Below, one piece after another: positions 1 through 3,227 of a DNA stretch of 3,227 nt (positions within the stretch are counted from its first letter, which is position 1; every line of letters starts with the position of its first letter). Position numbers and translations under genes: made by a program. The notes below the pieces were generated by a model. The model searched no databases, was not told where the DNA came from, and saw only the letters and a list, made by a program, of their open reading frames with translations. Source of the DNA: a virus (lineage: Duplodnaviria > Heunggongvirae > Uroviricota > Caudoviricetes); the IMG/VR virus record IMGVR_UViG_2541047736_000005, positions 1 to 3,227 of that record; one strand, written 5' to 3'.

Positions 1-19
1 TTTTACTTCTTCATGCCAA

Positions 20-37
20 AAGGGAGCTATCTCCCTT
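20..37 (+). terminator. Candidate intrinsic terminator hairpin for a gene ending upstream of the window
   Basis: Perfect 7-bp inverted repeat AAGGGAG (20-26) / CTCCCTT (31-37) with 4-nt loop CTAT, followed by GTTTGAATTG. The U-tract is weak and the stem is only moderately GC-rich. Confidence 0.25.
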
Positions 38-148
38 GTTTGAATTGAAAAGTCCAGGCTGCAAAGTCTGGGCTTTTGTCGTATTAGGGCACGGTAAAGT
101 TTGGCTGTGCCCGTAAAAAATGGCTGGCTATACACAAGGAATGTGGCA

Positions 149-706
149 ATGAGTGGTGAAAAAAAGGCGAAAGGCTGGCGGTTCTATGGTCTTGTAGGTT
201 TTGGCGCAATAGCACTGCTTTCCGCTGGCGTCTGGGCGTTGCAATATGCTGGCAGTGGGCCAGAAAAAACGTTGTCGCCGCTGGTGGTGCACAACAATCT
301 GCAAATCGATCTCAATGAGCCGGACCTCTTTCTCGACAGCGACTCTCTGAGCCAGCTTCCCAAAGATCTCCTCACCATTCCGTTTCTCCACGATGTTCTG
401 AGCGAAGATTTCGTTTTCTATTATCAGAATCATGCCGATCGTCTGGGCATTGAAGGCAGCATTCGTCGTATTGTCTATGAACACGATCTCACGCTGAAAG
501 ATAAGCTCTTTTCGTCACTCTTAGATCAGCCCGCGCAGGCAGCGCTGTGGCACGATAAACAAGGCCATCTTTCACATTATATGGTGCTGATCCAGCGCAG
601 TGGTTTAAGCAAACTGCTGGAGCCATTGTTGTTTGCCGCTACCAGCGACAGCCAGTTAAGCAAAACGGAAATCAGTAGCATCAAGATAAATAGTGAAACT
701 ATTTGA
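149..706 (+). CDS. Hypothetical protein with N-terminal signal-anchor/TM helix, function unknown (185 aa)
   Basis: Six-frame ORF 101..706. I place the start at ATG 149 because AAGGA at 136-140 gives an 8-nt spacer, whereas the TTG at 101 has no RBS. Stop is TGA 704-706. After a basic KKAK stretch comes a hydrophobic segment WRFYGLVGFGAIALLSAGVWALQYAG, then a hydrophilic domain rich in D/E/L/S. No catalytic motif recognised by eye. Confidence 0.6.
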   Translation: MSGEKKAKGWRFYGLVGFGAIALLSAGVWALQYAGSGPEKTLSPLVVHNNLQIDLNEPDLFLDSDSLSQLPKDLLTIPFLHDVLSEDFVFYYQNHADRLGIEGSIRRIVYEHDLTLKDKLFSSLLDQPAQAALWHDKQGHLSHYMVLIQRSGLSKLLEPLLFAATSDSQLSKTEISSIKINSETI

Positions 707-781
707 TGCGCCGCGCGATAAATGCACTCTATCTTGTGCGATAAATGGCATCCACGCGGCGTTTCATTATTTGAAAAAGAA

Positions 782-1354
782 TTACATTTCAGGTTGCGTT
801 ATGACAGTCCCAACAGGGTGGTAGCGGTAGATCGTTGACAGTCCAATATCATAGATAATTGCCAGCCGCTTTCTGTCATACCCTTTCTGGAGCAATCTTG
901 CGATCTGCTCATGCTGCTCCTTCGTCAGTTTCGGGCGACGTCCTCCAACTCTCCCTTGTGCTCGCGCAGCAGCCAGTCCTGCCAGCGTGCGCTCAACTAT
1001 CAGTTCACGCTCCATTTCTGCCAGTGCACCCATCATATGAAAAAAGAACCTTCCCATCGGAGTGCTGGTATCGATTGAATCCGTCAGACTGCGAAAATTG
1101 ACACCTTTTGCGCGTAGCTCTTCTGTGAGAGCAATGAGGTGTTTCATTCTTCTACCCAACCGATCCAGCTTCCAGACCACCAATGTATCCCCTCTTTTAA
1201 GGCACTTTAAAGCGCGTTTCAGGCCTGGTCGTTCCGACTTGGTTCCGCTCATTTTGTCCTCAAAAATCTGTTCACATCCTGCGCACATTAATGCATTGCG
1301 TTGCAAATCTGTGTTTTGGTCATTTGTTGACACACGTATGTAGCCAATCAGCAT
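782..1354 (-). CDS. pin: Small serine recombinase, DNA invertase of the Hin/Gin/Cin/Pin family (190 aa)
   Basis: N-terminus MLIGYIRVSTNDQNTDLQRNAL carries the catalytic Ser in the RVST motif. Central blocks GDTLVVWKLDRLGR and SLTDSIDTSTPMGRFFFHMMGALAEMERELIVERT and a C-terminal HTH-like IGLSTIYRY match the hallmark blocks of this family. ATG is the complement of 1352-1354, with a GGGAG RBS (complement of 1363-1367, 8-nt spacer). It lies directly beside tail-fibre cassettes, as in Mu G, P1 C and e14 P. The symbol is family-level only; I cannot say which pin allele. Confidence 0.95.
   Translation of the reverse strand: MLIGYIRVSTNDQNTDLQRNALMCAGCEQIFEDKMSGTKSERPGLKRALKCLKRGDTLVVWKLDRLGRRMKHLIALTEELRAKGVNFRSLTDSIDTSTPMGRFFFHMMGALAEMERELIVERTLAGLAAARAQGRVGGRRPKLTKEQHEQIARLLQKGYDRKRLAIIYDIGLSTIYRYHPVGTVITQPEM
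1201..1261. promoter_or_regulatory. Candidate Fis-dependent recombinational enhancer inside the 5' part of the invertase gene
   Basis: Two 15-bp elements with G at position 1, C at position 15 and an AT-rich centre: GGCACTTTAAAGCGC (1201-1215, nearly palindromic about TTTAAA) and GCTCATTTTGTCCTC (1247-1261). Their centres are about 46 bp apart. In Hin/Gin/Cin systems the enhancer lies within the first ~100-180 bp of the invertase gene with two Fis sites about 48 bp apart. Pattern match only. Confidence 0.25.
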
Positions 1355-1408
1355 TAAAAATACTCCCTTTTGAGTGGTTAAAGTACTGAGATAATGTGGG
1401 GAGGATTT

Positions 1409-1434
1409 GAGAGATAAACGTTGGTTTGGGCGAA
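1409..1434. promoter_or_regulatory. Candidate recombination crossover site (gix/hix/pix-like) at the invertase-proximal border of the invertible segment
   Basis: GAGAGATAAACG TT GGTTTGGGCGAA has the AAACx-NN-GGTTT core typical of Gin/Hin crossover sites. The right half-site GGTTTGGGCGAA matches the recalled consensus GGTTTTGGATAA at 9 of 12 positions; the left half matches only in the inner AAAC. The site sits between the invertase start and the fibre cassette, and the cassette reading frame opens exactly here (in-frame TGA at 1408-1410). Confidence 0.45.
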
Positions 1435-1890
1435 ACGATAAATAAAGCCTCCGGAGCTATGCAGAAATCGGCTAATGGAGCTGATATTTCTGATGTATCA
1501 GCCTTCCGAAATGCGCTCCAGTTAGGGGCCGCCGCAACACGAGATGTTGGAGCAGATAATGCCTCGAAGTTACTGGATTTAGACAGCTTCAGGTCAATGA
1601 TGTCAGGGAATGGCTACATCTACATTCCATGCATTGCGACGACAGGAAACCCGGTGAAACTTATGTTGCAGTGGGGAACGGTGGCAACACAAAAGGGAGC
1701 TGATGCTGGATATGCCTTACCATTTGCTTTTCCCTATGCAGGCTTGTTTGCGACCGGAAACCGTGGAACATCTGGCTACAATGCCGCGATGAATGTGCGT
1801 ATTGCCAGCAGAACGCATATCAGTATTCAGAACTGGTCGCCATCCGGAGAGGGCACCGAAGATTGTTGTTTTATCGCGCTGGGGTATTAA
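1411..1890 (+). CDS. Tail-fibre C-terminal (receptor-binding tip) cassette, apparently the silent alternate arm of the inversion switch; no own start or RBS
   Basis: Frame is open from 1411 to TAA 1888-1890. The first in-frame start candidates are TTG 1426 and ATG 1459, with no convincing RBS. The product shares the motif LQLGxAAxRDVG and a C-terminal ...A[IL]GY end (CCFIALGY versus HFEAIGY) with the minus-strand fibre. Its 159 codons are similar in size to the short fibre fragments I recall next to pin in e14. Confidence 0.8.
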   Translation, partial: EINVGLGETINKASGAMQKSANGADISDVSAFRNALQLGAAATRDVGADNASKLLDLDSFRSMMSGNGYIYIPCIATTGNPVKLMLQWGTVATQKGADAGYALPFAFPYAGLFATGNRGTSGYNAAMNVRIASRTHISIQNWSPSGEGTEDCCFIALGY

Positions 1891-1892
1891 GA

Positions 1893-2303
1893 ATGAATAA
1901 ATTTTATAAAGGCTCTTTCTATCCGGAAGCACTAAAAGATGTATATATCAGCGCCGGCTCATGGCCTGAAAACGGCGTTGATGTTGATGATGAAACAATG
2001 GCAATTTACACGGGTGTCGTACCACAGGGTAAAATGCTAGGTTCCGATAAAAATGGCAACCCTGCTTGGGTGGATATTCCGCCTCTTTCAACGGAGCAAT
2101 TAGTTGCCATTATGGAGCAGAAGAAAGGGAAACTTCGTTCGATAGCCGATGCTGAAATTAGCTGGCGACAGGATGCCGTTGATGCAGGGATAGCGACGAA
2201 AGAGGAAACCGCCGCGTTATCTGAATGGAAAAAATACCGGGTCCTGCTGATGCGCGTTGATACAGCAAAACCCGTATGGCCTGTCAATCCGCAGGATATT
2301 TAA
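1893..2303 (+). CDS. Tail fibre assembly protein (Tfa chaperone), 136 aa
   Basis: ATG 1893 lies 2 nt after the fibre stop, suggesting translational coupling. The C-terminal block [31 protein letters not shown] matches the conserved C-terminal chaperone motif of lambda-type Tfa proteins as I recall it (...[25 protein letters not shown]...). The track ORF starts at 1863, but that overlaps the fibre and I prefer 1893. Stop is TAA 2301-2303. Confidence 0.85.
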   Translation: [136 protein letters not shown]

Positions 2304-2517
2304 CGGGGGCGTTGTAGGTGGTGACATATTCAAGCAGTTCTGTTGGATATGTCACCGTTGCTGCATCTCGCTCTACGTTAAATGTATCCGCTCCCCAGAT
2401 AACACACTCCCTCAAAAATGCCTCCACCTCTGGCGAGACTTCAACCGCATCATCAGGTCGCTCTTGTTCAGAAACATAAAAACCAACGGTCGTTGGGCTG
2501 AAATAGATATTCTCCAT
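2284..2517 (-). CDS. Tfa-like N-terminal domain only (77 aa); probable truncated or decayed tail fibre assembly gene
   Basis: ATG (complement of 2515-2517) lies 2 nt after the minus-strand fibre stop, the same junction architecture as the plus arm. N-terminus MENIYFSPTTVGFY...PDDAVEVSPEVEAFL resembles Tfa N-termini of the IYFSA..FY type. The ORF stops at TGA (complement of 2284-2286) without the conserved C-terminal ATKEE..W.KYRVLL.RVD block, and the track shows no minus-strand ORF that could supply it by frameshift. It overlaps the 3' end of the plus-strand tfa by 20 bp. Confidence 0.55.
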   Translation of the reverse strand: MENIYFSPTTVGFYVSEQERPDDAVEVSPEVEAFLRECVIWGADTFNVERDAATVTYPTELLEYVTTYNAPVKYPAD

Positions 2518-2519
2518 AT

Positions 2520-3227
2520 TTAGTATCCTATTGCTTCAAAATGCAGTGTCGGTGTTTCGCCGAGATTGGGTGTCGTATACGCCACAGTGAATCGCGTTCT
2601 TGATACGTCAGTGCCAGAATCAGTATCGCGATGCGTTGCCAGTGATTTTCCGGCCATTGTTGACTGGGTCGGATAGCTGTAACTCGCTAGTGTTGCCAGC
2701 GTTGCTATTTGTGCATTTGGGAATTGTCTGGGGAAATTAACCCTGTAGTAATGGGTGTAGTACGTCACCCCACCAAGCACCTGCGAGTTGAAGTTACCAA
2801 CTGGTGTCAGTGTCACAGTGCCAGCCTGTCGAATCATACCATTTGGGAGAATATCCCAGGCAGTTTGTCCGTTTCGCGACATACCAAATGCGGACATGTC
2901 CGGGAGTTGATTATTACCGGTTCCGACATCCCGTTTTGCCGCTTCTCCCAATTGAAGGTAATTGAGGACTTCTTTTATACTGCCCATAGCGATAATAGCG
3001 CGACCAATAGCTGTAAGGGTTGTCAGCGCTGCGCGGTCTGCTCCGGTAAAATAAGGCAACCGATCTGCTGCAGTGGCAAGTCCTGCCAGAGCAGTGAGCG
3101 TGGCATCTGCCGGTTGTTTTCCGTTTGCCAGATCGTATGCAGCCTTGACCGCTTTCGGTGTGGCGGCCAGTATTTCAGACGTGCTGTTGATGTCACTGCT
3201 CAATTGTACGGTGCCTTTTGCCGTCAG
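2520..3227 (-). CDS. Tail fibre protein, C-terminal portion (partial; 5' end lies beyond the right edge of the window)
   Basis: The reading frame is open from the window edge (3227) down to TAA (complement of 2520-2522); the M in the track at 3203 is a TTG inside an open frame. SDINSTSEILAATPKAVK...NGKQPADATLTALAGL...LPYF resembles the conserved region of lambda-like side tail fibres (recalled, unverified). It is followed by a divergent tip ending HFEAIGY. Confidence 0.9.
   Translation of the reverse strand: MTAKGTVQLSSDINSTSEILAATPKAVKAAYDLANGKQPADATLTALAGLATAADRLPYFTGADRAALTTLTAIGRAIIAMGSIKEVLNYLQLGEAAKRDVGTGNNQLPDMSAFGMSRNGQTAWDILPNGMIRQAGTVTLTPVGNFNSQVLGGVTYYTHYYRVNFPRQFPNAQIATLATLASYSYPTQSTMAGKSLATHRDTDSGTDVSRTRFTVAYTTPNLGETPTLHFEAIGY

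Follow-up and report, generated by a model that had tools for sequence, protein, structure and literature searches.

We conclude, with little doubt, that the end of an E. coli prophage contained in the stretch of DNA analyzed here (the window, 3,227 nucleotides) holds a complete inversion switch of the Din family (Hin/Gin/Cin/Pin) that swaps tail-fibre tips. The data show two crossover sites, exact breakpoints in natural variants, fibres that are fused in frame in either orientation, and a recombinase that is intact. We infer that Pin is the responsible enzyme, that Fis acting at an enhancer at 1270-1332 assists it, and that the two tips give different host ranges. The cassette belongs to the Din family of invertible tail-fibre segments, an ordinary known type, and a non-exhaustive literature search found no paper on this particular cassette. 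In the window orientation, tip 1 (2520-2954) and a 77-aa ORF occupy the expressed position, downstream of the minus-strand late tail operon, and tip 2 (1423-1890) is silent, as is its Caudo_TAP gene. If, as the sequence indicates, the switch is complete and probably active, then the prophage can present two different receptor-binding tips.

We propose that the serine invertase encoded at 782-1354 would bind the inverted 26-bp sites at 1409-1434 and 2943-2968 and cut at both 2-bp cores, TT/AA at 1421-1422 and 2955-2956, with inversion of the 1534-bp segment between the cores. A Pin dimer would occupy each site, both sites and a Fis-bound enhancer would come together as an invertasome, and double-strand breaks staggered by 2 nt at the core would then, by rotation of the subunits, yield the inversion; Pin binding, invertasome formation, and the cut-and-rotate steps are modeled here on Hin, Gin, Cin, and Pin. 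Since the distal site falls within the tail-fibre gene, either orientation links the constant body ending in ...SIKEVLNYL in frame to one of the two receptor-binding tips, and each tip has an assembly gene of its own downstream.

What identifies the two sites? Din crossover sites are 26 bp long, with imperfect 12-bp inverted halves about a 2-bp core, and paired sites are inverted and have identical cores. A weight matrix was built from 13 distinct published sites of the family (hix, gix, cix, pix, mix, and bix; table in PMC3241671). Its top match in the window is the pin-proximal site at 1409-1434, which reads TTCGCCCAAACC AA CGTTTATCTCTC on the minus strand, has its core at 1421-1422, and scores 18.8-19.0 bits. 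The second match is the distal (partner) site at 2943-2968, which reads TTCTCCCAATTG AA GGTAATTGAGGA on the plus strand, has its core at 2955-2956, and scores 17.3-17.7 bits. These are the only strong matches, they are inverted with respect to each other, and both show an AA core when read from the inner half; the third-ranked match in the window reaches 6.4 bits. Across 200 shuffles the matrix maxima had a mean of 6.3 (sd 2.9) and a top value of 16.3, all of which the distal site exceeds. The sequences of both sites differ from every published site in the PMC3241671 table and are nearest to the mix and pix sites (19-22 of 26 bases).

The distal site and the inverted left site have 13 of 26 bases in common, a fact that we counted against our main reading, and it is because of this low match that a near-exact or manual search misses the pair. 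No other copy of the left 26-mer (1409-1434) with up to three mismatches was found on either strand of the window, and a generic inverted-repeat search (seed 7) returned nothing connecting 1409-1434 to the right arm. The original prediction that 2520-3227 holds no inverted copy of this site is therefore correct for copies with up to three mismatches, but the partner, as located by both the matrix and the breakpoint, is within that interval at 2943-2968. The far site had been placed right of 3227 or else taken to be degenerate; it is instead the second matrix match and the exact inversion breakpoint. Within the plus tip, LQLG..RDVG recurs about 100 nt inward of the GLGE-encoding site, and the earlier reader, reasoning from the plus cassette, probably expected a site some 100 nt upstream of LQLG; because this internal motif was aligned with the minus tip, the site was sought too far right by about 100 nt. 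The nucleotide identity of the two tips around LQLG..RDVG, put there at about two-thirds, is 26/36 (72%). More generally, Din partner sites can match at half their bases and can sit on conserved fibre codons, and they should be sought by family profile or by comparison of orientation variants, not as a near-exact inverted repeat; the significance of the present case is mostly that of correct annotation.

The distal site overlaps the YLQLGE codons on the minus strand, its inner half TTCTCCCAATTG being the LQLGE coding sequence of the expressed fibre, and the left site's inner half codes for GLGE. The distal inner half has AATTG where published sites have a near-invariant AAACC, which was likewise counted against the main reading. 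This same inner half is kept beside the cassette of this tip in each of 10 other prophage loci, which have P2-like, Mu-like, and other backbones and in which the AATTG-type half lies either beside the invertase or beside the constant fibre part. Because it is unchanged at all ten, we take the unusual AATTG half not to be a product of decay. Similarity to other E. coli genomes and phages breaks at the edges of the sites (window 1434 and 2942/2943), as expected if the sites are module boundaries.

The decisive evidence comes from natural variants. The truncated YfaA protein at the host junction was used to recognize this insertion in further samples, and both orientations were found at the same yfaA junction: L011, the scaffold containing the window, and L014, identical to the window over 3165 nt, are of the window type, and L013 and L015 are flipped, matching window positions 1-1437 and 2940-3227 directly and 1418-2959 in inverted orientation. 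When the invertible segment (1422-2955, 1534 bp between central dinucleotides) is reverse-complemented in silico, the window becomes L013 without a single mismatch in 3227 nt, and the same product equals L015 over its 1450 nt. Shifting the breakpoint by at least 2 nt either way introduces mismatches, which limits the exchange to 1421-1422 / 2955-2956, plus or minus 1 nt; L013 thus displays the precise, conservative exchange at the central dinucleotide that characterizes the Din family. Both predicted recombinant junctions are exact in L013, and the left one is also present in L002 and L003. The same cassette with the TTCTCCCAATTG half occurs in both orientations across 10 unrelated prophage backgrounds. 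The original prediction had named strain-to-strain orientation polymorphism as a check on its suggestion of a locked switch, and the opposite orientations of L011/L014 and L013/L015 speak against locking.

Complete genomes were also searched. With 80-nt probes for the four junction types, 0, 1, 0, and 6 of 5426 complete E. coli genomes matched at 80% coverage or more; the window-type distal junction was found in 0 of these genomes and the flipped type in 1, a result counted against the main reading. Since almost no probe matched at full length, the complete genomes yield no orientation statistics, and since the combination of constant part and tip is nearly absent from them, the orientation polymorphism rests on a few draft and short-read assemblies.

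Both states give open in-frame fibres, in which ...SIKEVLNYL is followed by QLGEAAKRDVG in the window and by GLGETINKASG in L013. The 3' end of the constant fibre body (2957-3227, minus strand) is an open frame that continues right beyond the window. As the original prediction had it, the minus-strand fibre frame is open to the window edge, 2520-3227 being free of stop codons, and it includes a fibre-body block, evident here as the repeat TAKGTVQLSSDINSTSEILAATPKAVKAAYD and as a match to Pfam Phage_fiber_2 (residues 1-39, E 2e-17). The tip joined in frame to this body (2520-2954, minus strand; QLGEAAKRDVG...HFEAIGY, then stop; Pfam Gp53-like_C) is the expressed one, and the in-frame fusion together with the silent plus cassette bears out the view that the minus arm is currently expressed. 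The alternative tip (1423-1890, plus strand; GLGETINK...IALGY, then stop; Pfam Gp53-like_C) is promoterless and silent in the window orientation, and its 5' end is closed, again as had been claimed, by an in-frame TGA at 1408-1410 directly left of ...EINVGLGETINK. In L013 this tip joins the constant part in frame, ...SIKEVLNYLGLGETINK....

Each tip is accompanied by a downstream gene. The tail-fibre assembly protein of the silent tip is encoded at 1893-2303 on the plus strand (Pfam Caudo_TAP, E 4e-31) and has 136 aa from its ATG, or 146 aa if started at TTG 1863. Downstream of the expressed tip lies the 77-aa ORF (2284-2517, minus strand), which matched no Pfam family and which, from its position, is presumed to encode a protein that serves that tip as partner or chaperone; 20 nt of the ORF overlap the convergent Caudo_TAP gene. 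In 10 of 10 loci read, this ORF lies between the AATTG-type site (on the tip-1 side) and the convergent Caudo_TAP gene, and the exact 77-aa protein is found in 6803 blocks of a public collection, so that the cassette must be very common. The whole has the layout of an invertible tail fibre, with a crossover site inside the fibre ORF and alternative tips with convergent downstream genes. The complete homologous fibre in L002 and L003 is 639 aa long.

Din-family recombinases combine a resolvase-type catalytic domain at the N-terminus, with the active-site serine near residue 10, and an HTH at the C-terminus. The product of 782-1354 (minus strand), an intact pin-type serine DNA invertase of 190 aa, is of the size expected for the family (about 190 aa) and contains both the resolvase domain (Pfam Resolvase, E 8e-51) and the C-terminal HTH (HTH_7, E 1e-12). 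Its residues 1-181 align with the Gin structures 4m6f and 3uj3 (E 2e-93) with the catalytic YIRVSTNDQ block kept, and among solved structures Gin is the nearest to this invertase. The hin and gin enhancers consist of two Fis sites 48 bp apart in the 5' coding region of the recombinase gene. In the pin 5' coding region, two matches to the Fis consensus constitute a candidate distal enhancer site (1270-1284) and a candidate proximal enhancer site (1318-1332, about 96 bp from the left crossover centre); they are the sole degenerate Fis-core matches in 1100-1400, and their centres are 48 bp apart, at pin codons ~8-28. The degenerate motif has low specificity (28 matches in the window versus about 25 expected), a spacing of 47-49 bp also occurs in two other pairs of Fis matches elsewhere in the window, and the statistics are accordingly weak; we treat the matches and their 48-bp spacing as supportive only. 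A 19-nt inverted repeat (84% complementary), which may be due to chance, joins 1272-1290, the region of the candidate distal Fis site inside pin, to 1392-1410, the sequence bordering the crossover site on its left.

Could the segment instead be frozen, with the minus arm expressed and the partner site decayed or right of 3227? We give this next to no chance. It would account for a left 26-mer that lacks a second copy at up to three mismatches, for a candidate partner that matches the left site at just 13/26, and for a window that ends at 3227 within the fibre gene, but it is at odds with the occurrence in nature of the exact inversion product, with 0 mismatches and breakpoints at 1421/22 and 2955/56. 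Nor is the distal site, at 17.3-17.7 bits, weaker than might be expected of a working site, hixR scoring a similar 18.8; and, the homologous distal site aside, no other site of at least 13 bits is present in the 7.5 kb read to the right in L011, nor in the complete L002 and L003 fibres. A locked switch with an absent partner is ruled out by the exact junctions, the 0-mismatch inversion, and the matrix match. The alternative raised in the original prediction, a degenerate far site and hence a locked switch, is contradicted by identical prophage copies in both orientations and by the intact invertase. Nothing in the sequences compared indicates that the switch is locked, and the intact state of both sites, of the recombinase, and of the enhancer-like region, like the existence of base-identical copies in both orientations, speaks against it.

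There is a very slim chance that the two orientations arose without Pin, by homologous recombination across the LGE-coding similarity or by an assembler mis-join. The inner half-sites do both encode L-G-E with TTGGG in common, and the flipped copies come from short-read assemblies; against this, the longest identical runs between the two sites, at about 5 nt, are much too short for RecA-dependent recombination or for a k-mer assembler, the breakpoint coincides exactly with the 2-bp cores of a pair of Din-type sites, and the same cassette is flipped in many complete genomes. A third reading, to which we assign a small probability, accepts the sites and a past inversion and holds that the switch is now inactive in this strain, the polymorphism being inherited, for example because pin is silent in a defective prophage. 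The prophage could indeed be defective, its fibre being interrupted by an unsequenced gap, and the pin-proximal site of the flipped state is made of two weak halves (11.8 bits). Yet the two orientations are otherwise identical over 3227 nt, which argues for recent events, and the recombinase ORF is intact, as are both sites and the enhancer-like region. We favor a complete and probably active switch.

Inversion reshuffles the half-sites of this switch, such that the window state has two sites of medium score (18.8 and 17.7 bits) and the flipped state one strong site (24.7 bits) and one very weak one (11.8 bits). As a speculation with a low but real chance of being right, we suggest that the conserved TTCTCCCAATTG may be more than a by-product of coding for LQLGE, that the reshuffled half-sites could bias the switch towards one orientation and produce an asymmetric rate of phase variation, and, as a separate matter, that the tips of the resident prophage might act as adsorption blockers against other phages. 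Adsorption blocking has been reported for PinQ and StfE2 (PMC12529663).

How does the cassette compare with known Din systems? The Salmonella Hin site hixR sets a precedent, since it functions with one half, TTTTCCTTTTGG, that departs from the consensus, and at 18.8 bits it scores about as high as the distal site here; unlike the present switch, Hin flips a flagellin promoter and not the coding end of a fibre. In phage Mu, whose G segment is about 3 kb, a constant part is likewise combined with alternative variable tips and the assembly genes of these, with the invertase at the extreme end of the prophage beside the invertible fibre segment, and the present invertase is about 80% identical to Gin, as judged by eye, over 181 residues. 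In contrast to the sites described here, with their AA core and 13/26 match, the gix sites have a GA core and are mutually identical (PMC3241671). The Shigella boydii pinB / B segment was considered as a counterpart and rejected, its published bix sites having a GA core and gix-like halves (PMC3241671). By base count the closest published sites are those of Min (p15B), a system we considered together with the P1 C segment/Cin: the left site matches a mix site at 21/26 and the distal site matches mixQ''R' at 19/26, with a GGTAAT outer-half start in common. Min has six sites and multiple overlapping inversions, whereas only two sites are present here.

The e14 P segment/Pin of E. coli K-12 also has its invertase beside a segment with two convergent pairs of tip and assembly genes, and one of its crossover sites falls within the fibre gene. 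In the left site described here, the outer half CGTTTATCTCTC is similar to pixR CGTTTATGAAAA (the e14 sites being pixL and pixR), the inner halves follow TTC(T/G)CCCAAACC, and L010 has the cassette described here between e14-type outer halves. The differences are that the segment is 1534 bp here and 1797 bp in e14 (PMC12529663), that one inner half here is TTCTCCCAATTG with no AAACC, and that the constant part and the prophage backbone, which here includes P2-type baseplate genes, are not those of e14.

Why does the window end within the fibre gene? The window is identical to positions 9853-13079 of L011, an E. coli scaffold (GCA_000457165.1, KE699566.1), and it stops at 3227 because a 745-N scaffold gap (L011 13080-13824) follows directly. 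Beyond the gap lies the N-terminal part of the same fibre (L011 13825-14252), followed by the P2-type baseplate genes. Extending the sequence rightward, where the original prediction would have looked for the inverted site, thus leads through the gap into the fibre N-terminus, and no site of at least 13 bits was found within the 7.5 kb read right of the window in L011; nor, apart from the homologous distal site, do the complete homologous fibres of L002 and L003 contain one. Window 3127-3227 is part of a repeated fibre unit, QLSS..S.SE.LAATPKAVKAAYD, and six places in L002's complete homologous fibre match this 100-nt stretch. The fibre repeat probably caused the 745-N assembly gap.

At the other end, window 1-703 (plus strand) is the 5' part of the host gene yfaA (DUF2138), which lies outside the switch, is 100% identical to yfaA in E. 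coli genomes among the matches listed, and is interrupted by the prophage end, so that yfaA is reduced to 185 aa. When window 1-800 was used as the query, 5394 of 5426 E. coli genomes had a match over at least 80% of it. The border between yfaA and prophage is at about 703/704, similarity to other prophage copies beginning at about 700-704. The terminal stretch of the prophage, from the host junction to the pin stop codon, lies at 704-781, and 99% identity to L002 and L003 (both GCA_949769055.1) holds from 700/704 to 1437. The prophage terminus, which starts TGATGCGCCGCGCGATAAATGC, is about 78 bp past the pin stop codon. The host gene at the prophage end is yfaA here, tar in L002, yedD in L003, and aroA in PV468777.1; because the same prophage end abuts different host genes, these varied neighbors suggest that the phage is transposable (Mu-type) and does not use a fixed attachment site. 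When the full window was compared with the 5426 complete E. coli genomes, none had the whole arrangement, the best coverage being 63-68% at 87-90% identity, and matches to the window in the phage collection were partial and mosaic only. One annotated record of that collection that we inspected is a predicted prophage, badly delimited, that takes in host genes.

Finally, we note that the near-identical prophage copies L002 and L003 lie at ~2.73 and ~2.85 Mb of GCA_949769055.1, about 110 kb apart and in inverted relative orientation, and that they flank the flagellar and chemotaxis region; the fibre segment is flipped in both. Several short-read contigs end near the junctions, L015 at 33 nt past the left crossover, L016-L018 at window 703, and L012 at 828. 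Contig breaks at a crossover or at the host-prophage junction are as expected for mixed orientations or for repeated prophage copies.
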